Positions 7,665-19,868 of a stretch of DNA of 20,387 nt are shown here, piece after piece. The first letter of the stretch is position 1; every line of letters begins with the position of its first letter. A program made the translations under genes and the position numbers. This DNA comes from an uncultured bacterium (GTDB lineage: Bacteria; Lernaellota; Lernaellaia; Lernaellales; Lernaellaceae): NCBI GenBank assembly GCA_964534375.1, contig CAZHPN010000108.1:1-20387 (forward strand). Direction: 5' to 3'. The notes below the pieces were generated by a model that worked only from the letters and a program-made list of their open reading frames with translations, searched no databases and had not been told where the DNA came from.

Positions 7665-8564
7665 ATGGCGGGTTTCAAAACGAAATCGGTCCCTTTCGAC
7701 TATCAGGTGAAGGCCGATGGTCGGACGTTTGACGGACACGCGGCGGTTTTCAACAACCTCGATTCATACCGGGATCGGATTTTGCCCGGCGCCTTCGTCA
7801 AAACGATCAAAGAGGGCTTGCCGGCGAATCGGATCAAGGTGCTTTGGCAGCATTGTTGGGACCGGCCTATCGGGTTGCCCCTCAACATGAGCGAGGATTC
7901 GACGGGTCTGCTCGTCGAGGCGCGCGTGTCGGCCGTGCCGGACGGCGACATGGCGCTTCAACTGATGCGCGACAAGGTGGTTGACGCGCTCTCGATTGGC
8001 TACCGCACCGTCAAATTCAACCAGACAAACCCCGGCGACGGCACGCCGCCGATCACCGATCTCGTCGAATTGAAGCTGCGCGAGTTTTCGCCGGTCACAT
8101 TCGGCGCGAACGACCAAGCCCTGATTACAGGCGTGAAGGCGACCGAAACGTTGCGTCAAATTTTGAGCGACGACCCCCAGGCGGTCGCGGCTTTTCTCGC
8201 CGAACTGCAAGAGGCGCAGCGAAAGGCAAAGGCGGCGGGCAATCCCCCGCCGAACGTCGGCGACGTGAAAGCGGGGCGCATGATCTCGGCGGCAAACGCG
8301 AAGATCATCCAAGGCGCATGTGACGCGCTGGCCGCGACGGGCGGCGCGTTGAGCGATTGCAGCGATGCCTTGCAAGCACTCTTGGCCGACTCCGCCAGCG
8401 ACGACGACTCGGCGGCTGGCGGCGACGGGCAGCCCCCTGAGCCGGCTTCGACCACTCAGCAGGGCGACAAGCAAGAGCCGCTACCCTTCAACGTGGACCC
8501 GGCAGCGTTCCAGTCCGCGCTCGAAAAATTGGCAAAGCTGGCGAGCTTGGGACAGCGACCCTAG
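7665..8564 (+). CDS. HK97-family prohead protease with C-terminal scaffold-like extension
   Basis: FDGHAAVFNNLD, PGAF, catalytic His in VLWQH, catalytic Ser in DALSIGY, LREFSPVTFGAN. The extension contains KAGRMISAAN. GAGG SD. Confidence 0.93.
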   Translation: MAGFKTKSVPFDYQVKADGRTFDGHAAVFNNLDSYRDRILPGAFVKTIKEGLPANRIKVLWQHCWDRPIGLPLNMSEDSTGLLVEARVSAVPDGDMALQLMRDKVVDALSIGYRTVKFNQTNPGDGTPPITDLVELKLREFSPVTFGANDQALITGVKATETLRQILSDDPQAVAAFLAELQEAQRKAKAAGNPPPNVGDVKAGRMISAANAKIIQGACDALAATGGALSDCSDALQALLADSASDDDSAAGGDGQPPEPASTTQQGDKQEPLPFNVDPAAFQSALEKLAKLASLGQRP

Positions 8565-8631: not shown

Positions 8632-10059
8632 ATGACGGCCGAAGAACTGAAAAAACACTTCGACGACGCGATTGCGGCCCTGACGGCTTCGCTCGTGAAG
8701 CGCGACGAGGAAATCAAAAACCTCGGTGACGTGACGGCGGCGACGAAAAAGCAGTTGACGGACGCCGAAGGGCGATTCGACGCGATCACGGCGGAACTGG
8801 CGGGCGCGAAAAAGCGCGCCGACGACCTCGAACTCAAATTCGGGCGTCCCGGCATGGCCCGCGGCCACGGCGGCGAGCGCAAGAGCGCGGCCGATATGTT
8901 CACCGAGAGCGACGAATTCAAAAACATGATGACGAAGAATCTGCTGTCGTGCGGCGCGGTGCCGGTCGGCGACGGGTTCTCGCGGAAAGACTTGTCGGGC
9001 GCGAGCGGCAGCGCCGGCATGGTCGTCATTCCCGACATTCAGGCGACGGTCATCGTGCCGCCGCAGCGCCAGTTTTACTTGCGCGGCCTATTCGGCGGGC
9101 AAACGACCGTGAGCAACCTCGTGGAATTCATCTGCGAAACGGGCTTCGCAAATCTGTTCACGACCCTGGCGGCGGCGGCAGCGGCCGGTGCGCAGCAGAT
9201 CACGGTTGCCAGCGTCGCGGGCCTCTACCGCAACCAAAAGTTGTGGGTCGATGTCGAAGGCCCGTTCTCGATCTCCGACGTGGCGACGGACGGCTCGAAC
9301 GTCGTGTCGCTGAACGCGCCGCTGGTGTCCGCGAAGGTCGCCGGCATGTCGGTCGTGTCGAACACCTACGGCCCGAAGGCCGAAGGGACCGACGCGCCCG
9401 AAATGAACATCACCTACGACCGGCAGACGGTCCCGGTGAAAACCCTTTCGTCCTGGGTGCCTGTGACGCGCCAAATCCTGCTGGACGCGCCGCAGTTGAA
9501 CGCGCTCATCAACATCAAGCTGGCCTACGGCTTGAAGATCACCGAAGAAGAGCAGTTTTTGTACGGCGACGGGACCGGCGAAAGCCTGCTCGGCGTCCTG
9601 AATACCCCGAGCATTCAGCATTACGCCTGGTCGTCGGGCGTCAAGACGGACACGAAAATCGACGCGCTGCGCCGCGCGATGACACTCGCCCGGTTGGCTC
9701 ACTACCCGGTCGATGGCATCATTCTGCACCCCTATGACCTGGAAAGCATCGAACTCATCAAGGACACGATGGGCCGGTACATTTGGGTCAACGTGAACGA
9801 CGGCGGCGTGCCGCGGTTCTGGCGCGTCCCGGCTCTCGAAACCGAAGCGATCCGGCCGGGAACCTCGCTGCTCGGCGCGTTCTCCCTCGGCGCGGCGGTC
9901 GTGGACCGCGAGCAGACCACCGTGCGCGTGAGCGATTCGCACAGCGACTTTTTCGTGAAGGGCAAGATGGCAATTCTGGTCGAGGAACGGCTGGCGCTGA
10001 AAGTCGAGCGGCCGGAAGCGTTCGTCGAAGTCGCCTTCGACGCGCCCCCCTCGTACTAA
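8632..10059 (+). CDS. Major capsid protein, HK97 gp5 family (475 aa) with delta domain and E-loop insertion
   Basis: GGGGGA SD-like sequence before ATG 8632. Coiled-coil N-terminus with probable cleavage at RK119/DLS. Motifs VKTLSSWVPVTRQILLDAPQL, GDGTG, KDTMGRYI and EERLAL are colinear with HK97 gp5. Confidence 0.95.
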   Translation: MTAEELKKHFDDAIAALTASLVKRDEEIKNLGDVTAATKKQLTDAEGRFDAITAELAGAKKRADDLELKFGRPGMARGHGGERKSAADMFTESDEFKNMMTKNLLSCGAVPVGDGFSRKDLSGASGSAGMVVIPDIQATVIVPPQRQFYLRGLFGGQTTVSNLVEFICETGFANLFTTLAAAAAAGAQQITVASVAGLYRNQKLWVDVEGPFSISDVATDGSNVVSLNAPLVSAKVAGMSVVSNTYGPKAEGTDAPEMNITYDRQTVPVKTLSSWVPVTRQILLDAPQLNALINIKLAYGLKITEEEQFLYGDGTGESLLGVLNTPSIQHYAWSSGVKTDTKIDALRRAMTLARLAHYPVDGIILHPYDLESIELIKDTMGRYIWVNVNDGGVPRFWRVPALETEAIRPGTSLLGAFSLGAAVVDREQTTVRVSDSHSDFFVKGKMAILVEERLALKVERPEAFVEVAFDAPPSY

Positions 10060-10097: not shown

Positions 10098-10112
10098 ATC
10101 CTGGGTGGTGGT

Positions 10113-10147
10113 GGGGCCGCGTCTGGTCAACGCGGCCCCTTCTTTTC
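10113..10147 (+). terminator. Intrinsic terminator after the major capsid gene
   Basis: GGGGCCGCGT-CTGGTCA-ACGCGGCCCC followed by TTCTTTT. Confidence 0.75.
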
Positions 10148-10177
10148 CCAAACCTAATTCAACGGGGAGCAGAAAAA

Positions 10178-10372
10178 ATGACAAACGTGCAGCGAATTCT
10201 TACCGCGGCTATGACCAACAACCCGAAGGGGGGAATTGCGGCGCTCGCCGGCATCGCCGTCGAGATCGCCACGGTTCCGAATATCTCGTCAACGGCCGTT
10301 CAAGTTTTCAACGGCGCCTCGGTCGTGATTCTGGCGCTCGCCAGCGTCGTGCCGGGCACGATTATTCAGTAA
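10178..10372 (+). CDS. Small holin-like membrane protein (64 aa)
   Basis: GGGGAG SD, two hydrophobic segments after NNPKGG, directly upstream of a peptidoglycan peptidase. Confidence 0.55.
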   Translation: MTNVQRILTAAMTNNPKGGIAALAGIAVEIATVPNISSTAVQVFNGASVVILALASVVPGTIIQ

Positions 10373-10388
10373 AGGGACGGGGAAAAAC

Positions 10389-10808
10389 ATGCAGGGAACA
10401 TTAGACGTTGCCGCGAAATATCTTGGCGTTGCCGAAGCGCCGGCGGGCGCGGCCCCGAATCCGACCATCCTCAAATTTCAGGCGGTCGTTCACAACCCGG
10501 CCGACGACGAAGTGCCTTGGTGCGCCGCTTTCGCCAACGACGTTTTGAGCGAGGCGGGCATCGAGGGAACGAACAAGCCGAATGCGCGCTCGTTCATGGA
10601 TTGGGGCGTCGAAACCGACAATCCCGAACCGGGCGACATTGTGGTTTTCTGGCGCGGCGACCCGAACGGCTGGCAGGGCCACGTTGCGTTTTTCGTGGAA
10701 TTTCTCGAAGGCGCGCTGGTCCGCGTACTCGGCGGCAACCAGCACGACAGCGTTTGCTATGCGAATTTCCCGACCGCGCGTGTTTTGGGTTATCGGCGCG
10801 CGGCGTGA
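10389..10808 (+). CDS. NlpC/P60-like (TIGR02594-type) peptidoglycan peptidase, putative endolysin
   Basis: Family motifs DEVPWCAAF (catalytic Cys), ARSF, PGDIVVF, GHVAF (catalytic His), LGGNQ. Confidence 0.88.
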   Translation: MQGTLDVAAKYLGVAEAPAGAAPNPTILKFQAVVHNPADDEVPWCAAFANDVLSEAGIEGTNKPNARSFMDWGVETDNPEPGDIVVFWRGDPNGWQGHVAFFVEFLEGALVRVLGGNQHDSVCYANFPTARVLGYRRAA

Positions 10809-11819: not shown

Positions 11820-12368
11820 ATGGGCGGCGACGCGACGACGGACACCGACCGCGGGTGGATCAAAATATCGGAAGCGGCCGAAGCCCTGGCAAAGAGCGCG
11901 GTCGAGGTCGGCATCTTCGGCGGCATTCACAATCTGCTCGGCCAGTCCATCGCCGATTACGCGATCGACAACGAATTCGGCGCGCCGAAGGCGCACATTC
12001 CCGAACGGTCGTTCGTTCGGGCGACGGTGGACCGCAACCGCGGAAAATACGACAAGTTGGTTGACCAGCTAATCGACGACATTCTCGAAGGGCGCGGGAC
12101 CGTGCAGGGCGGTCTCGTCATCCTGGGGATGATGGTCCAGAACGACATAAAGCTGTTCATCACGAACTTTCGCAGCCCGGCCGACGCTCCGGCGACGATT
12201 CTGAAAAAGCTGAACCGGCACGACTTCAAGCGTTTCAAGAAGCTCGGCGTGCTGCCGATTGGCGCGAACCATCCCTTGATTGATACGGGCGCGATGCGAA
12301 ACGCGGTGTTATTCCGCGTCATCGACACGACGGGCGGCGGGCAAGAGCCGGCCGGCGAAGGGGCATGA
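11820..12368 (+). CDS. Neck / virion morphogenesis protein
   Basis: NEFG...IPERSFVR, PATI and PLIDTGAMRNAV motifs typical of myovirus neck genes. Confidence 0.82.
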   Translation: MGGDATTDTDRGWIKISEAAEALAKSAVEVGIFGGIHNLLGQSIADYAIDNEFGAPKAHIPERSFVRATVDRNRGKYDKLVDQLIDDILEGRGTVQGGLVILGMMVQNDIKLFITNFRSPADAPATILKKLNRHDFKRFKKLGVLPIGANHPLIDTGAMRNAVLFRVIDTTGGGQEPAGEGA

Positions 12369-12724
12369 AAATGGTTTTCTTTCTGCTCGCCCCTTTCTCG
12401 GAAGTGTTCTTGCTGCGCCGAACCGCGCCCGGTGTGTTTATCAAAGGGCGATGGGTCGAGGGCGCGACGACGGAAACGCCAGTGACCGGAAGCGTCCAGC
12501 AAGCCAACGACCGCGACATTCAACTGCTGCCGGAAGGCTTGCGCACGAACGAAACGCTCAAGATTTTCACCGAAGTCGAGATTAAGACGGAAAACCAACC
12601 GGCTCACCAAAGCGCCGACGTGATCGTGCGTAAGGGCGTCGAGTATTTAGTGATGAGCGCGGCGACGTTCGGCGCGCCGCTGCCTCACTGGCGCGTCCTG
12701 GCGCGCAAGATCGAGGGACAATGA
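12365..12724 (+). CDS. Head-closure / head-tail joining protein
   Basis: GRWVEG, GSVQ and DIQLLPEGLR motifs; 119 aa; syntenic position. Confidence 0.75.
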   Translation: MKMVFFLLAPFSEVFLLRRTAPGVFIKGRWVEGATTETPVTGSVQQANDRDIQLLPEGLRTNETLKIFTEVEIKTENQPAHQSADVIVRKGVEYLVMSAATFGAPLPHWRVLARKIEGQ

Positions 12725-13792: not shown

Positions 13793-15478
13793 ATGGGCGC
13801 GTTGACAGACGTCTGTAATGTGAACATCAGCTTGCAGGGCGCCGGCGTGACGCAAGAAGGTTTCGGCACGCTGCTCTGCCTGACGCCGCACGTCGCTTGG
13901 ACGGATCGCGTGAGAGAGTACGCGAGCGCGGCCGACATGCTCACGGACGGGTTCAAACAGTCGGATGCGGCATATCAGGCCGCGGAGATTTATTTCTCGC
14001 CCCTCGTCAACGCGCCGACCAACATCAAAATCGGACGTGTGGCCGTGCAAAAGGTGGCGGTCGCGTTCAGGCAGAGCGTACCTGACCCCACGGTTCCGGG
14101 GACAACGTATACGCTGACGATCAACGGGCGGCCCTGTTCATATACCGCTCCCTCCAATGCCGACCACTCGCAAACAATGGCTTTCGACGGCATCGCCGCG
14201 GCAATCAGCGCGGCATTTCCGGGGGGCGATATTACTACGCGCGTCATGGGGCCGGGATCGGGCATCGTGTTTATGCTCATCCAGAACACCACCGGCGAGC
14301 CGTGGACCGTCGCGCCGGATTCACACCTTCTGATGGCCGTGGGCGGGATCGAGGTTTCGACTAAGAGCATCGGCGTCGGCGACTATTCGTTGACGGCATT
14401 CGGCAAGACGGCAACATACACCGCGGGCAGCAACGACACCGAAGATACGATTCTCGCAGGACTGGCGGCGGCGACCAACATGCAGGGCGCGCCGTATTTC
14501 GCAATCGTGGCCGACGGCAACACGCTGCTGCTGATGTGCTACCCCGGCGACGACACGATTGACCCGATTCAGATGCAGCAAACCATGTCGGCATACGCCG
14601 TGAGCGACAATCTCAACGTCGTCGATTTCGTCGGCGAAACGGTCGCCGCGGCCCTGGCGGCGTGCGTTGACGCCGACTCGGATTTCTACGGCGTGATGGT
14701 CACGACGCGCTCGGCCGACGTGCAGCTTGCCGCGGCGGAATGGATCGAACAGAGCGGTCGTTTGTACGGCACGGCGAGCGCCGACCCGGCTGTTTCCGGC
14801 ACGACGCCCCAGGCCGACACGACCAGCATCGCGGCGCAACTGATGGCCTTGCAGCGTTACCGCACCTGGGGCTTGGACGACCCGAACGCGAACGGCGGGA
14901 ACGGCGACCCCTGGCCCGAAGCGGCTTGGTTCGCCGCCATGCTCCCGATCGACCTCGACGAAGCCACGGCGACGTGGAAGTTCAAGCAACTGGCCGGCGT
15001 GGCGGTCCCGAAGCACACGACGAATCAGATTGCGAATCTCGTCGGCAACCCGCAGCTCGGCAGCGGCGGGAAAAACTGGAATCTCTACGACAGCATCGGC
15101 GGTCAGGGCATCACGCGCGAGGGCAAAGTCTGCGCCGGCGAGTGGATCGACATTATCATGGGGCGCGATTGGCTCGAAGCGCGCATGACCGAGGCGGTTT
15201 TCAACGTGCTGCTCACGTCGGCAAAGGTGCCGTTCACGGACGGCGGCGTTGCGCTCGTGGTCAACCAGATCATCGCGTGCCTCAAGACCGCTTTCAACAC
15301 GCAGTTTTTGGCCTTTGACAGCACCCTCGGCAACCTCGGTTTCTCGCTGACCGTGCCGGCCGTTCTGGACATGAACCCGACCGATCGTTCCAACCGCGTG
15401 TTGAAGGGGATCACTTGGTCGGCGCGCGTCGCCGGCGCGATTCACGTCGCGGACCTGAACGGCGCGATTGCGGCGTAA
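13793..15478 (+). CDS. Tail sheath protein (DUF3383-like)
   Basis: AGGAGG SD. Motifs GFGTLL, YQAAEIYFS, IKIGR, TWKFKQLAGV, GEWIDIIMGRDWL, KVPFTDGG, AGAIH. Confidence 0.9.
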   Translation: MGALTDVCNVNISLQGAGVTQEGFGTLLCLTPHVAWTDRVREYASAADMLTDGFKQSDAAYQAAEIYFSPLVNAPTNIKIGRVAVQKVAVAFRQSVPDPTVPGTTYTLTINGRPCSYTAPSNADHSQTMAFDGIAAAISAAFPGGDITTRVMGPGSGIVFMLIQNTTGEPWTVAPDSHLLMAVGGIEVSTKSIGVGDYSLTAFGKTATYTAGSNDTEDTILAGLAAATNMQGAPYFAIVADGNTLLLMCYPGDDTIDPIQMQQTMSAYAVSDNLNVVDFVGETVAAALAACVDADSDFYGVMVTTRSADVQLAAAEWIEQSGRLYGTASADPAVSGTTPQADTTSIAAQLMALQRYRTWGLDDPNANGGNGDPWPEAAWFAAMLPIDLDEATATWKFKQLAGVAVPKHTTNQIANLVGNPQLGSGGKNWNLYDSIGGQGITREGKVCAGEWIDIIMGRDWLEARMTEAVFNVLLTSAKVPFTDGGVALVVNQIIACLKTAFNTQFLAFDSTLGNLGFSLTVPAVLDMNPTDRSNRVLKGITWSARVAGAIHVADLNGAIAA

Positions 15479-15565: not shown

Positions 15566-15991
15566 ATGCAGACGAAAACGTTTGACCTTAAGAAAATGAC
15601 CGTGGCGATTGGCCCGGTTACGCTTGGCGACTTCGCCAAGGGCGACGTTATCAAGGTAATCCGCGACGAGGACACGTTCAAGAAAGAAGTCGGCGCGACC
15701 GGCGAAGTGGGCCGCTCGAAAACGAACAACCGCGCCGGGAAAATCACGTTCTCGTTGCTTTCGACCAGTCCGGCAAACGCGGGCATGTCGGCCGTGATGC
15801 TCTCGGACGAAGTGAGCAACGGCGGCATCGTGCCGATTACGATTATGGACAAGGGCGGCGCTGACGTTCACGTCGCGCCCGAATGCTGGATCGTCAAACC
15901 GCCCGATGCGATTTACAGCAACGAAGTCAAAGACCGCGCCTGGGTTTTCGATTGCAGCGACGTGGATATGTTTTTCGGCGGCAACAAGTAA
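15566..15991 (+). CDS. Tail tube protein (DUF3277-like)
   Basis: 141 aa after the sheath. Motifs TFDLKK, VGATGEV, GKITFSLLSTSPAN, CWIVKPP, RAWVF. Confidence 0.88.
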   Translation: MQTKTFDLKKMTVAIGPVTLGDFAKGDVIKVIRDEDTFKKEVGATGEVGRSKTNNRAGKITFSLLSTSPANAGMSAVMLSDEVSNGGIVPITIMDKGGADVHVAPECWIVKPPDAIYSNEVKDRAWVFDCSDVDMFFGGNK

Positions 15992-16047: not shown

Positions 16048-16482
16048 ATGCCTTTGCAAAATGCAGACCGCCAGATCGACGGCCACAAGTACACGGTGCG
16101 GACCTTTCCGACGCGCGTTTCGCTCGAAATTCTGGCGCGGTTGACGCGGCTGTTCGGGCCGTCGCTGGCGGAATTCGACGAAGACGGTTTCGGCGCAGCC
16201 GCGGCGGCAAAAACGCTCGTCGGCAGTATGGACAAAGTTGACGTTTGCCAACTGGTCTTGGACATGGCCGAAACGCATCACAACGTCCTGGTGGACGGCG
16301 AAAAAATGCAGGGCGAAAACATTTTCGACTTGCATTTCGCCGGTCGCCTGGGCGCGCTTATCGCGCTCGTGACGTTCGTAATGGAGTGCAATTACCGGGA
16401 TTTTTTCGACTTGATGAGAGCCGCCGTCGCTACCGTCAAGAATGCGACGAAGAAGGCGGCAGCGGAAACGGGCCAGCCGTAA
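16048..16482 (+). CDS. Tail assembly chaperone (gpG-like)
   Basis: GGAG SD; lies between tube and tape measure; FDLHFAG and NYRDFF motifs. Confidence 0.82.
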   Translation: MPLQNADRQIDGHKYTVRTFPTRVSLEILARLTRLFGPSLAEFDEDGFGAAAAAKTLVGSMDKVDVCQLVLDMAETHHNVLVDGEKMQGENIFDLHFAGRLGALIALVTFVMECNYRDFFDLMRAAVATVKNATKKAAAETGQP

Positions 16483-16676: not shown

Positions 16677-18836
16677 TTGCCAGTCGTTCGTGAACTCATA
16701 ACCCGATGGGGCTTCGCCGCCGACACCGCGAAAGTGACGGCGTTCAACAAGGAGATCGCCGGGGGAAAAGTTGCGGCCAACGAGTCGGCGTCGGCGTACA
16801 GCGGGTTAACCGCCGTCATCGGCAAATACATTGCGGCAATCGGCATCGTCGGCATCGCCACGAAGAAGGCGCTCGACACCGCGAACTTCAAAGACGCGAT
16901 GCTCAACACGATGACGATAGTTGAGGCGACCGGCGACAAGCTGGCGGCAATTCAGGACGGATTGGAAAAAAAGGCGCGGGAACTATCTGATCGGTTCGGG
17001 ATCTCCGCGCAGGAAATCGGCGGCGCGGGTTTCTTCCAAGTGTTGACCGATGGCGCGCAGCCCGCGACAAAAGAATTCGACGCGCTGGCCGAAACGGGCA
17101 TCAAGGTCGCAAAACTCACCAACCAGCAAGTCGCGCCGGCCATCGAAGGGGTTACGGCGCTGCTTCACGGTTTCAACATCGAAGCGACCGACGCGCCGGC
17201 GCTGATGGACAAGTTTTTCAAGGCCGGCAAGCTCGGCATGTCAACGAACGTGCCGCAGATGATGGCCGCGTTGCGTATTTTCGGCCCGACCGCTCGTTTA
17301 GCCAAGATGGACATAAGCGAAGCGATTGCCGTGTTGGGCGGATTCGCCAAAGTAAACTTGAAAGGTGAAGCGGCGGGCGAATCGCTAAATATGTTCCTGA
17401 CGAAGCTGCAAACGCCGACGCCGACCTCCGAACCGTGGTTGCAAAAAATGGGTTGGGATATGCACGACCCGAAGAACCACCCGTTATATGACGCGACCGG
17501 CAAGATGCGGCCGCTGCTCGATATTATCGAGCGATTGCAGCACGGCGTTGCGAAACTCAGCGACGCGCAGCGCAACGAGGCGATGAAGGAACTGTTCGGC
17601 GAACGCATTTGGAAAAAATTTGCCGGCATTTTGAATCTCGACATTGAAACGTTGCGTAAATTCCGCACGGAGATCGCCGGCGCGGGCGGCGACATGGACC
17701 AGGCGCTTGCGGTCAAAATGGATTCGCCGATTGGAAAATTCAACAAACTAAAGGAAAACATCAAAAATTCCTCGATTGAACTGCTGGAAGGTTTGATTCC
17801 GGCCGTCAACGAGTTTATGGCGGATTTGCTCCAAGGAGTGACCGACAACAAGGAAGCCATCCACGACTTCGCCACGGGCGCCGTCGCGGACCTGGGCGAA
17901 ACGATCAAGTGGATTGGCAAATACCGAACGGCCCTTGAGGACGCCGCGAAAATCGTTGTCACGATTTGGGCGGGCGTTACCATTGCCGGCTGGCTTCCGG
18001 CTCTGGCAAAGATCGTCGGGTACGTTATCGGCGCGTTAATTCCGGCGTTCACCCAGGCGACGGTTGCGGTCGCGGCGTTCGCCGGGGAAGGCGCAACGAT
18101 CTTCACGGTCCTGGCGGGTTCTCTCGCCTTGGTCGTCGGCGGCATCGTGGCGCTCGCCGCCGAAATAGGCGGAATAATTTATTATATGTATTCGGCGATT
18201 GCCGCGTGGCAACAGGCCGACGCCCTAATAAAAGCCCAAGGCGAGTCGCGCGTTCAAAACGGCAAAACTTTGAGTTATTACGCCGAAATCGACAGGATGA
18301 CCGGCACGGGCAACCAGAAAGGCACGAAAGAGCAGCGAAACGCCTATGTGAAGGCGCGCAACGCCGGCAAGACCGCCGATGAAGCATGGGAAATCGCGTT
18401 CAAAGACGAAAACGACGCAAACGCGAAAATGTACCGGAAGGGAAAAGACGCCGGGACTAATTGGATGGACGGGCTGCAAAAAGGGCTGAAAGACGGCAAG
18501 GACAAGGCCGAGGACGAACTGAAATTTTTGCATCCCGGCTTCGACAAAGGCACGATGCAGGACTTTGCCGAATTCATACGATCGGGCTACGCGCGCAAGG
18601 GCGGCGGCGAGGCCGACCAGATCGGCGCGTGGCTTGGCGGGCGCAAAGTGCCGCTCGAAACCTTCGGCGGCAAAGCGGGCGGCGGCGTGACGCACGACAA
18701 CCGGACCTACAACATCAACGGGGCGCAAGACCCGGCCGCGGTCGCGGCTGAGATCGGGCGCCTCGACCGCGGCAATACGCTGGACTTTCTCGGCCCTCAG
18801 AAATTGCCGGTGTCGTCAATCCAACCAAATCTCTAA
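16677..18836 (+). CDS. Tape measure protein (TP901-like core), 719 aa
   Basis: TTG start after AGGTG. VRELIT N-terminus, KGEAAGESL and YDATGKMRPL core, helical Ala/Gly-rich body, central hydrophobic segment. Confidence 0.92.
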   Translation: MPVVRELITRWGFAADTAKVTAFNKEIAGGKVAANESASAYSGLTAVIGKYIAAIGIVGIATKKALDTANFKDAMLNTMTIVEATGDKLAAIQDGLEKKARELSDRFGISAQEIGGAGFFQVLTDGAQPATKEFDALAETGIKVAKLTNQQVAPAIEGVTALLHGFNIEATDAPALMDKFFKAGKLGMSTNVPQMMAALRIFGPTARLAKMDISEAIAVLGGFAKVNLKGEAAGESLNMFLTKLQTPTPTSEPWLQKMGWDMHDPKNHPLYDATGKMRPLLDIIERLQHGVAKLSDAQRNEAMKELFGERIWKKFAGILNLDIETLRKFRTEIAGAGGDMDQALAVKMDSPIGKFNKLKENIKNSSIELLEGLIPAVNEFMADLLQGVTDNKEAIHDFATGAVADLGETIKWIGKYRTALEDAAKIVVTIWAGVTIAGWLPALAKIVGYVIGALIPAFTQATVAVAAFAGEGATIFTVLAGSLALVVGGIVALAAEIGGIIYYMYSAIAAWQQADALIKAQGESRVQNGKTLSYYAEIDRMTGTGNQKGTKEQRNAYVKARNAGKTADEAWEIAFKDENDANAKMYRKGKDAGTNWMDGLQKGLKDGKDKAEDELKFLHPGFDKGTMQDFAEFIRSGYARKGGGEADQIGAWLGGRKVPLETFGGKAGGGVTHDNRTYNINGAQDPAAVAAEIGRLDRGNTLDFLGPQKLPVSSIQPNL

Positions 18837-19190: not shown

Positions 19191-19868
19191 ATGCCGCTCG
19201 GTTTTCTGGTCAACGTACCGATCAAAACTCGCTTTCAAGTGAGTGGGACCGGCACCGAGGTTGACCCAATGCAAGCCCTGTTCGGGCAATTCACCGGGGC
19301 GGCGAGCGGCGTGCTGCTCGAACTCGACGCGGCGATCACCGAAGATCACGAGGTCAACGCGGAAACGACCGACTACCCGATTGAAACCGGCGCGATCATT
19401 TCCGACCACTATTTTCTGCGACCGCGAAAATACAGCGTTACGGGCATGGTGAGCGATTCGCCGGTTCAATACTTGTCGGCCCTCTCGACGGGCCTTGGCA
19501 GCGTTACAAACGTCATGGGAATCAGCACCGGCGAGTTGTCGCGCTCGCTGACGGCGTATCAGGCCATGCTCAGTTTGATGGTTTCGGCAACGCCTTTTGA
19601 AGTAGTGACCGGCCTCGATTTTTTGAAAAACATGGTCGTGAGCAGCCTTCGCGTGCCGCGCTCGGCGGTTCTCGGTCGGCAGTTTCGGTTTTCCGCCGAA
19701 CTCAAGCAATTGAACATTTTGAAAAAGGGCAAAGGGTCGAACACGACTGAGGATTTATTCGCCGACACCGACGAACTCGGTTACTTGTCGGGGCAAATTC
19801 CAAACGCGGTCGTCATTGCCGGCGCGGCCCTCTTTCTTGGGCTGGTCGGCTACCAGCTTTTGAAATAA
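19191..19868 (+). CDS. Baseplate / tail tube initiator (Dit-like) protein
   Basis: GGGAG SD. LELDAAITEDH...TDYPIETGAIISDH...P, GMVSDSP, PFEVVTGL and NMVVSSL motifs; follows the tape measure. Confidence 0.8.
   Translation: MPLGFLVNVPIKTRFQVSGTGTEVDPMQALFGQFTGAASGVLLELDAAITEDHEVNAETTDYPIETGAIISDHYFLRPRKYSVTGMVSDSPVQYLSALSTGLGSVTNVMGISTGELSRSLTAYQAMLSLMVSATPFEVVTGLDFLKNMVVSSLRVPRSAVLGRQFRFSAELKQLNILKKGKGSNTTEDLFADTDELGYLSGQIPNAVVIAGAALFLGLVGYQLLK

Follow-up and report, generated by a model that had tools for sequence, protein, structure and literature searches.

An HK97/D3-type phage capsid protein with an insertion domain in the E-loop and without the chainmail lysine and asparagine

Introduction

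The covalent chainmail of phage HK97 is the textbook form of capsid reinforcement, and insertion domains (I-domains) and decoration proteins are seen as alternatives to it. Whether one of these has taken the place of the other is the question raised by a capsid gene on contig CAZHPN010000108.1 (assembly GCA_964534375.1), binned with an uncultured bacterium of the Lernaellaceae. The window analysed here is this entire 20.4-kb contig (20,387 nucleotides), which comes from a genome bin of 381 contigs. The encoded protein (P0001) carries an extra domain in its E-loop, and an earlier note on this DNA had proposed that the domain replaced the chainmail. We found that most relatives bearing the insertion keep the crosslink residues, and that in the lineage of P0001 the domain is placed before the loss by the trees inferred here.

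Results and Discussion

A capsid protein of the HK97/D3 family without the crosslink lysine and asparagine

The features of the capsid gene on which the argument depends are the following:
8632..10059, + strand, major capsid protein gene of HK97/D3 type, 475 amino acids (P0001), from PF05065, matches to Protein Data Bank (PDB) chains and the model
8632..8988, + strand, N-terminal scaffolding (delta) domain, residues 1 to ~119, from helices in the model and an HK97 alignment spanning query residues 55-180
9154..9360, + strand, 69-residue insertion (I-domain), residues 175-243, a six-stranded beta-barrel in the E-loop, from the gap in PDB alignments and the model
9376..9378, + strand, Lys249 at the column of HK97 V163, from a PDB-chain alignment
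9394..9396, + strand, Ala255 (GCG), aligned with the crosslink lysine K169 of HK97, from HMMER alignments and the codon
9961..9963, + strand, Gly444 (GGC), aligned with the crosslink asparagine of HK97 (N356) and of D3 (N367), from HMMER alignments and the codon
9982..9984, + strand, Glu451 (GAG), a retained glutamate aligned with the catalytic E363 of HK97, from HMMER alignments and the codon

With regard to family, P0001 matched PF05065 (Phage_capsid) with 138.2 bits against a cut-off of 24.2 (E 4.6e-40), in an alignment covering the protein from residue 244 onward only, and the phrog_10 major head protein with an E-value of 2.9e-56. A phmmer search of PDB chains returned the capsid proteins of D3 (9osb, 3.1e-56), phiXacJX1 (9lbm, 1.3e-54) and HK97 (gp5, 3qpr, 4.1e-44). 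An AlphaFold2 model built from a 120-row alignment (pLDDT 88.0, pTM 0.75) showed the HK97 fold with its A-domain, P-domain and spine helix, E-loop and N-arm, superposing on HK97 prohead I (8fqk_D) with Z 27.1, rmsd 2.3, 264 aligned residues and 34% identity, and on D3 prohead 1 (9osb_A) with Z 26.1, 272 aligned residues and 41% identity, in line with the close kinship to gp5 that had been claimed earlier. Among the chains listed, none superposed on the model over more than 272 residues, and the extra domain is therefore covered by no solved relative. Long helices at residues 3-31 and 36-71 resembled the scaffolding domain of HK97 and D3, and by homology to K103/S104 of HK97 cleavage is predicted near K119/D120. 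Other structure-based searches were less specific: Foldseek against BFVD with the whole model gave generic HK97-family capsids only, with poor superposition, and an Atlas look-up (score 0.80) pointed, as leads only, to the SU10_MCP and Crass_capsid clusters by features and to capsid, adaptor and neck proteins by structure.

P0001 therefore shares its Pfam family and its fold with HK97 gp5, D3 and phiXacJX1, and with HK97 gp5 and D3 also the fused N-terminal scaffolding domain, the S78 protease encoded upstream and the glutamate at the catalytic column. It differs from all three in the E-loop insertion, which they lack, and in the chainmail lysine and asparagine, which they have and which in P0001 are alanine and glycine. 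These columns were assigned from HMMER alignments to HK97, D3 and phiXacJX1 and from the 258-row alignment described below; in D3, N367 is the residue crosslinked to the E-loop (PMC12749128). The reading of K169 as Ala, N356 as Gly and E363 as retained, first made in the earlier note, was thus reproduced, so that of the HK97 triad only the catalytic glutamate is present in P0001. Sequencing error can be excluded, because each replacement (Lys to Ala255, Asn to Gly444) needs two base substitutions and the same sequence occurs in three assemblies. Since Ala and Gly stand in the place of Lys and Asn, an HK97-type isopeptide would not be expected in the P0001 shell, which, to judge from these residues, is most likely held together non-covalently.

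The insertion lies in the distal E-loop

The translation of 8632-10059 agreed in every quoted string and coordinate with that given earlier, with ETGFAN ending at 9153 (residue 174) and TYGPKAEG beginning at 9364 (residue 245). Each PDB capsid match was split in two at this place, the first stretch ending at query residues 174-180 and the second resuming at 244, and in the phmmer alignments residues 175-243 had no counterpart in HK97, D3 or phiXacJX1; the roughly 70 extra residues noticed before are hence 69.

The insertion falls between the columns of HK97 N158 and N159, where it enters the hairpin's outgoing strand, a few residues ahead of the tip and 11 ahead of the K169 column. In the model, the base strands of the E-loop (residues 163-170 and 261-268) were retained, the distal part of the outgoing strand led into the extra domain, and residues 244-260 returned as coil. 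The domain was accordingly located in the E-loop, as in crAss001 and T4, and not in the A-domain, as in P22. Its earlier placement at the E-loop thus stood with regard to the distal part of the loop and needed correction with regard to the very tip.

Crosslink loss does not follow the insertion among relatives

If the domain had replaced the chainmail, insertion and crosslink loss would be expected to co-occur across homologues, as the earlier note had itself proposed. In a first set of relatives, 19 of 19 insertion bearers retained the equivalents of K169 and N356. For a larger comparison, the best 120 of 269 hits from a word-indexed search and the best 150 of 6354 from an exhaustive profile search were combined into 258 distinct proteins and aligned. 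An insertion of 40-87 residues at the E-loop site was present in 100 of them, and 91 of these kept both Lys and Asn; among the 158 proteins without an insertion of at least 40 residues, the pair was kept in 146. Loss of the pair was therefore no more associated with the insertion (9 of 100) than with its absence (12 of 158; odds ratio 0.83, Fisher p 0.82). The co-occurrence was thus absent, and the claim of replacement fails because insertion-bearing homologues retain K169/N356, the very observation that the note had said would tell against it.

Glutamate occupied the E363 column in all 237 relatives with Lys and Asn and was lost in 6 of the 21 without the pair. From this strict covariation of Lys, Asn and Glu, the triad behaves as one functional unit, and it is probably functional in the insertion bearers as well.

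A FastTree phylogeny was computed from the shell columns of the 258 rows, leaving out the insertion, the distal E-loop and the Asn column. By parsimony, the insertion state changed at least 14 times on this tree and the crosslink state at least 15 times, and independent pairs showed no trend between insertion and crosslink loss. P0001 was joined with P0196 and P0204 (support 93), its nearest neighbours carrying both insertion and triad. We also built a quick IQ-TREE phylogeny from 78 of the 258 rows, which took in every one of the 21 pair-less proteins, another 8 neighbours, and 25 proteins picked at random from each of the two remaining classes. Here, P0001 fell within a fork of 12 proteins (SH-aLRT 80), the other 11 of which had both the insertion and the pair, and within an inner fork of 5 (SH-aLRT 90). 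Since the tree neighbours have both the insertion and the crosslink residues, the loss is read as a later event on the branch of P0001 itself; on these phylogenies, the I-domain preceded crosslink loss in this lineage, and crosslink loss, with 21 pair-less proteins among the 258, is recurrent in the family and independent of the insertion. In a search for related loci, P0122 returned 10, whose matches of 1146-1212 bases represented relatives without the insertion, and P0196 returned none.

The HK97-family capsid protein, the beta-barrel I-domain in the E-loop and the loss of chainmail are each known. New, as far as we searched, are a large branch of uncultured members in the HK97/D3 family, amounting to 100 of the 258 nearest relatives, with an E-loop I-domain, mostly beside an intact crosslink triad, and one member of it that dropped the crosslink. 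The literature searched, mostly without subscription journals, contained no description of an HK97-family capsid that has the isopeptide as well as a domain in the E-loop, and no structure in the PDB copy searched combined an E-loop I-domain with an intact triad. P0001 itself represents one of repeated crosslink losses, and offers a convenient comparison with its crosslinking sisters rather than a new principle.

The inserted domain is a beta-barrel of the P22 and crAss001 type

When modelled alone from 15 homologues, the insertion formed a six-stranded barrel (pLDDT 87.6). This model was compared exhaustively with 48,161 PDB representatives, and 50 matches were listed. The best were accessory barrels of tail proteins, with Z values from 11.7 to 9.1 and up to 26% identity, namely an accessory domain of the phage Mystique tail tube (9n71; Z 11.7, rmsd 3.9, 77 aligned, 26% identity), the phage Chi tail tip (8vjh; Z 9.9), a Klebsiella K1 capsule lyase (7w1c; Z 9.7) and the JBD30 baseplate (8rk3; Z 9.1). 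All four belong to tail proteins, not to the E-loop of a capsid protein, and have largely undefined functions. Foldseek gave a single match at E up to 0.001, again 9n71.

Capsid proteins followed. Residues 60-151 of the Vibrio phage VP1 capsid protein matched with Z 8.7 (rmsd 4.1, 79 aligned) and, from their position in the chain, may likewise be an E-loop insertion. The P22 I-domain matched as 2m5s (Z 8.2, rmsd 2.0, 74 aligned) and as 5uu5 (Z 6.3), residues 76-176 of the phicrAss001 capsid protein (7qof) with Z 6.8 (rmsd 2.7, 74 aligned, 14% identity) and the CUS-3 coat protein with Z 6.6; the FCCH region of ubiquitin E1 also appeared (Z 6.7). The insertion was thus recognised as a P22-type six-stranded barrel, at middling Z values. 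Identity in the structural alignments to the P22 and crAss001 I-domains was 14-19%, and no Pfam family covers the insertion.

The crAss001 capsid protein carries a beta-barrel I-domain of P22-like fold in its E-loop (residues 79-180), and these domains form threefold assemblies on the capsid surface (PMC10172136). P0001 resembles phicrAss001 in having such a barrel in the E-loop of an HK97-fold protein, yet the phicrAss001 domain shows no detectable sequence relation to that of P0001 (14% identity) and is about 30 residues longer, and its capsid protein belongs to another family and has an auxiliary protein partner. The coat proteins of P22 and CUS-3 share the barrel fold; in P22, however, it is inserted in the A-domain (PMC5701804, PMC10172136), unlike the E-loop domain of P0001, and the scaffolding protein of P22 is separate and its ancestry without chainmail. 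In T4, gp23/gp24 have an insertion at a site similar to that of crAss001 but of a different fold, with one helix and six strands (PMC10172136), and a review on chainmail variants agrees on the T4 insertion (PMC5701804). No T4 chain was present among the 50 matches listed. The comparison with T4 made in the earlier note therefore applies to the site and, going by the fold reported for T4, probably not to the fold, the former having precedent in crAss001 and T4 and the latter in P22 and crAss001.

Sequence searches with the insertion gave little. A Pfam search of the insertion alone returned no family at E up to 1, and among 11 insertion-bearing homologues E1_FCCH was found in P0130 only, below threshold (18.3 bits against a cut-off of 29.5). 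Residues 160-262 retrieved only P0001 itself in a word-based search and had no tblastn match in 50,697 deposited phage genomes, and no structure in the PDB copy searched showed the insertion. The insertion had diverged further than the shell, with a median pairwise identity of 28.6% against 43.4% and a lower value in 4702 of 4950 pairs, which is the pattern to be expected if the domain is an exposed addition. Hydrophobic core residues and glycines in turns made up its conserved columns (G197 in 97 of 100, G201, Q202, T226).

Two further observations concern the distribution of such domains. A second type of insertion, of about 83 residues and with the pattern '...HGL..G..V.I.GA.Q..YNGT...', was found in P0056, P0064, P0075 and P0081 (and P0130); it occupies the same E-loop site, and its bearers keep Lys and Asn. 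Barrel insertions seem to have a hot spot at this site. In addition, a profile of the 100 capsid insertions matched two giant prepilin-type proteins (1316 and 1159 amino acids) of the same genome bin, with one module in each and E-values of 1.6e-11 and 9.6e-07 among 64,321 frames. These proteins carry N_methyl, fn3 and Ig domains and are encoded among PilX_N and GspH minor-pilin genes (contig C38, L005:13918-17868:- and L005:6423-9902:-). As judged from the profile matches, the barrel is a module common to phage and pilus-associated surface proteins.

How the shell may be held together

We consider it probable that the P0001 shell, which is of the HK97/D3 type, lost its crosslink on its own branch and is held non-covalently, with a surface I-domain beside the former crosslink site as a clamp or decoration. 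The neighbouring S78 protease would remove the N-terminal scaffolding domain and leave a shell subunit of HK97 fold. The lineage would first have acquired the small barrel in the distal E-loop, where it coexisted with the Lys-Asn-Glu triad, and both the lysine and the asparagine would then have been replaced on the branch to P0001 (Ala255, Gly444), leaving a shell without the HK97-type isopeptide. Because it lies 11 residues from the former lysine, the I-domain should be found on the outer surface, close to the local threefold sites at which E-loops pass over the P-domains of neighbouring subunits; the local threefold axes are where crosslinks or lambda-type decoration trimers act, as described in the D3 paper (PMC12749128). 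There, it would add surface contacts, as in crAss001 and P22, where the fold serves assembly and stability (PMC5701804, PMC10172136). By this analogy, a clamp or decoration is the most likely role of the I-domain, and a surface-adhesion role, compatible with it, is possible. The data show the family, the insertion and its fold, the loss of the two residues and the lack of association between insertion and loss. It is by inference that the shell has no crosslink of any kind, that the I-domain occupies this place on it after assembly, and that the domain stabilises it.

Several points weigh against this account. The contacts proposed for the I-domain are extrapolated from its chain position and from crAss001 only. 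The sampled relatives are those most similar to an insertion-bearing query and are not independent of each other, and no IQ-TREE branch that places P0001 reaches 95. The fold matches are partly of middling Z, and values below 8 can reflect a common arrangement. Glu451 is kept, which leaves room for other chemistry. Finally, although the family and phrog matches of neighbouring frames gave no recognisable decoration protein adjoining the capsid gene, the window is a partial genome, and such a protein may therefore be encoded elsewhere in the phage, outside the window. A prediction of a three-copy I-domain complex, as in a crAss001-like cluster, scored 0.00 against a mark of 0.42, had no controls and counts neither way.

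The I-domain might instead be displayed 60T times on the head to bind polymers of host or environmental surfaces, with little part in stability. Adhesion-type displays on phage heads are known, such as T4 Hoc or Ig-like domains. The fact that the best fold matches are to accessory domains from tail tubes, tail tips and tailspikes, the presence of the module in giant prepilin-type proteins within a minor-pilin cluster of the same bin, and the faster evolution of the I-domain relative to the shell would all be in line with such a function. However, the conserved columns are of the core and the turns, with no evident polar or aromatic binding patch, and in P22 and crAss001 a domain of this fold works in assembly and stability, as cited above. 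We therefore regard adhesion as the domain's main function as unlikely, although it is the most probable of the alternatives.

Less likely still is a permissive form of the replacement idea, namely that contacts of the I-domain made the isopeptide dispensable in the P0001 lineage, so that the domain took over functionally from the chainmail. The order of events would fit, since P0001 descends from insertion-bearing, crosslink-competent relatives, and so would the distance of 11 residues between the domain and the former lysine and the nine insertion bearers without the pair. This contrasts with the equally frequent loss in proteins without the insertion, with the 91 insertion bearers that keep both features and with the lack of a trend among independent pairs on the tree. 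That P0001, in a clade where I-domain and isopeptide normally occur together, is a natural chainmail-free derivative in which the I-domain, perhaps together with an ionic lock between Lys249 and Glu451, made the covalent bond dispensable is given only a small chance. If it were true, P0001 and its crosslinking I-domain relatives would be a matched natural pair for measuring the contribution of chainmail to capsid strength.

A different lock might also have arisen at the old site, either as a reversed Lys-Asp isopeptide (Lys443 or Lys445 with Asp254, and Glu451) or as a salt bridge between Lys249 and Glu451. Besides the retention of Glu451, this idea draws on Lys249, which replaces the usual Val/Thr at a position that is basic in 4 of 21 pair-less proteins against 4 of 237 others, and on Lys445, which follows Gly444 in P0001 and the corresponding position in three pair-less relatives. 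The four basic pair-less cases, however, come from two lineages only (P0001 and the P0069/P0086/P0161 clade), and crosslink-competent proteins, too, can have 'TD' ahead of the lysine. The reversed isopeptide is unlikely because the other pair-less proteins lack Asp254, whereas an ionic contact between Lys249 and Glu451 at the former active site is conceivable; taken together, we judge another lock to be very improbable.

The capsid gene belongs to a contractile-tailed phage

In addition to the capsid gene, the following features of the window were assigned:
7665..8564, + strand, prohead maturation protease (S78), just upstream of the capsid gene (PF04586, E 1.2e-23; phrog_80, E 2.9e-44)
10178-10372, + strand, hydrophobic frame of 64 amino acids between the capsid gene and the head-tail adaptor
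10389-10808, + strand, CHAP-domain protein of 139 amino acids (Pfam 4.8e-9; phrog_1259 'baseplate hub subunit and tail lysozyme', 5.1e-27)
13793-15478, + strand, DUF3383 sheath-like protein
15566-15991, + strand, KPP10_Orf10 tube-like protein
16048-16482, + strand, tail assembly chaperone
16677-18836, + strand, tape measure
19191-19868, + strand, Dit-like protein

The head module follows the order large terminase, portal, Mu F-like protein, S78 prohead protease and capsid gene (upstream of the last, PF03237/PF17289, PF04860, PF04233 and PF04586), and downstream of the capsid gene come genes for an adaptor, a neck protein, a DUF3383-type sheath, a KPP10-type tube, a chaperone, a tape measure and a Dit-like protein. 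Two contigs of a viral collection (18.5 and 29.9 kb) matched the window with 4 and 1 differences in 7425 bases and encoded the capsid protein identically letter for letter; the phage genome is therefore longer than the window. Among 40 related genomes, a single weak match was found (E 1.1e-4). The capsid gene thus belongs to a phage and is not a conserved host gene, and its source is an uncultured tailed phage with the gene set of a contractile tail.

It is hardly credible that the gene lies in a defective prophage and that the residue losses are neutral damage, as the binning of the contig with a bacterial genome might suggest, since the head and tail genes of the window are all open and in order, the identical protein recurs on three contigs that are almost the same, a viral collection being the source of two, the remainder of the shell is conserved and its fold is predicted with high confidence, and the 40 related genomes are without a copy except for that weak match.

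With regard to the start of the gene, GGGGGAAAG precedes the ATG at 8632, and an alternative start at 8365, giving a longer frame, is unlikely, as it overlaps the protease gene. A 99-residue frame at 10105-10404 was considered as a decoration protein and rejected, since it is Arg-rich, has no family match, looks non-coding and is overlapped by the more plausible hydrophobic frame of 64 residues. The tail module is of the contractile type, and a match to an E217 gp28-like collar protein at 12365-12724 was below cut-off. The CHAP-domain enzyme lies between the capsid gene and the head-tail adaptor, an unusual site for a cell-wall hydrolase.

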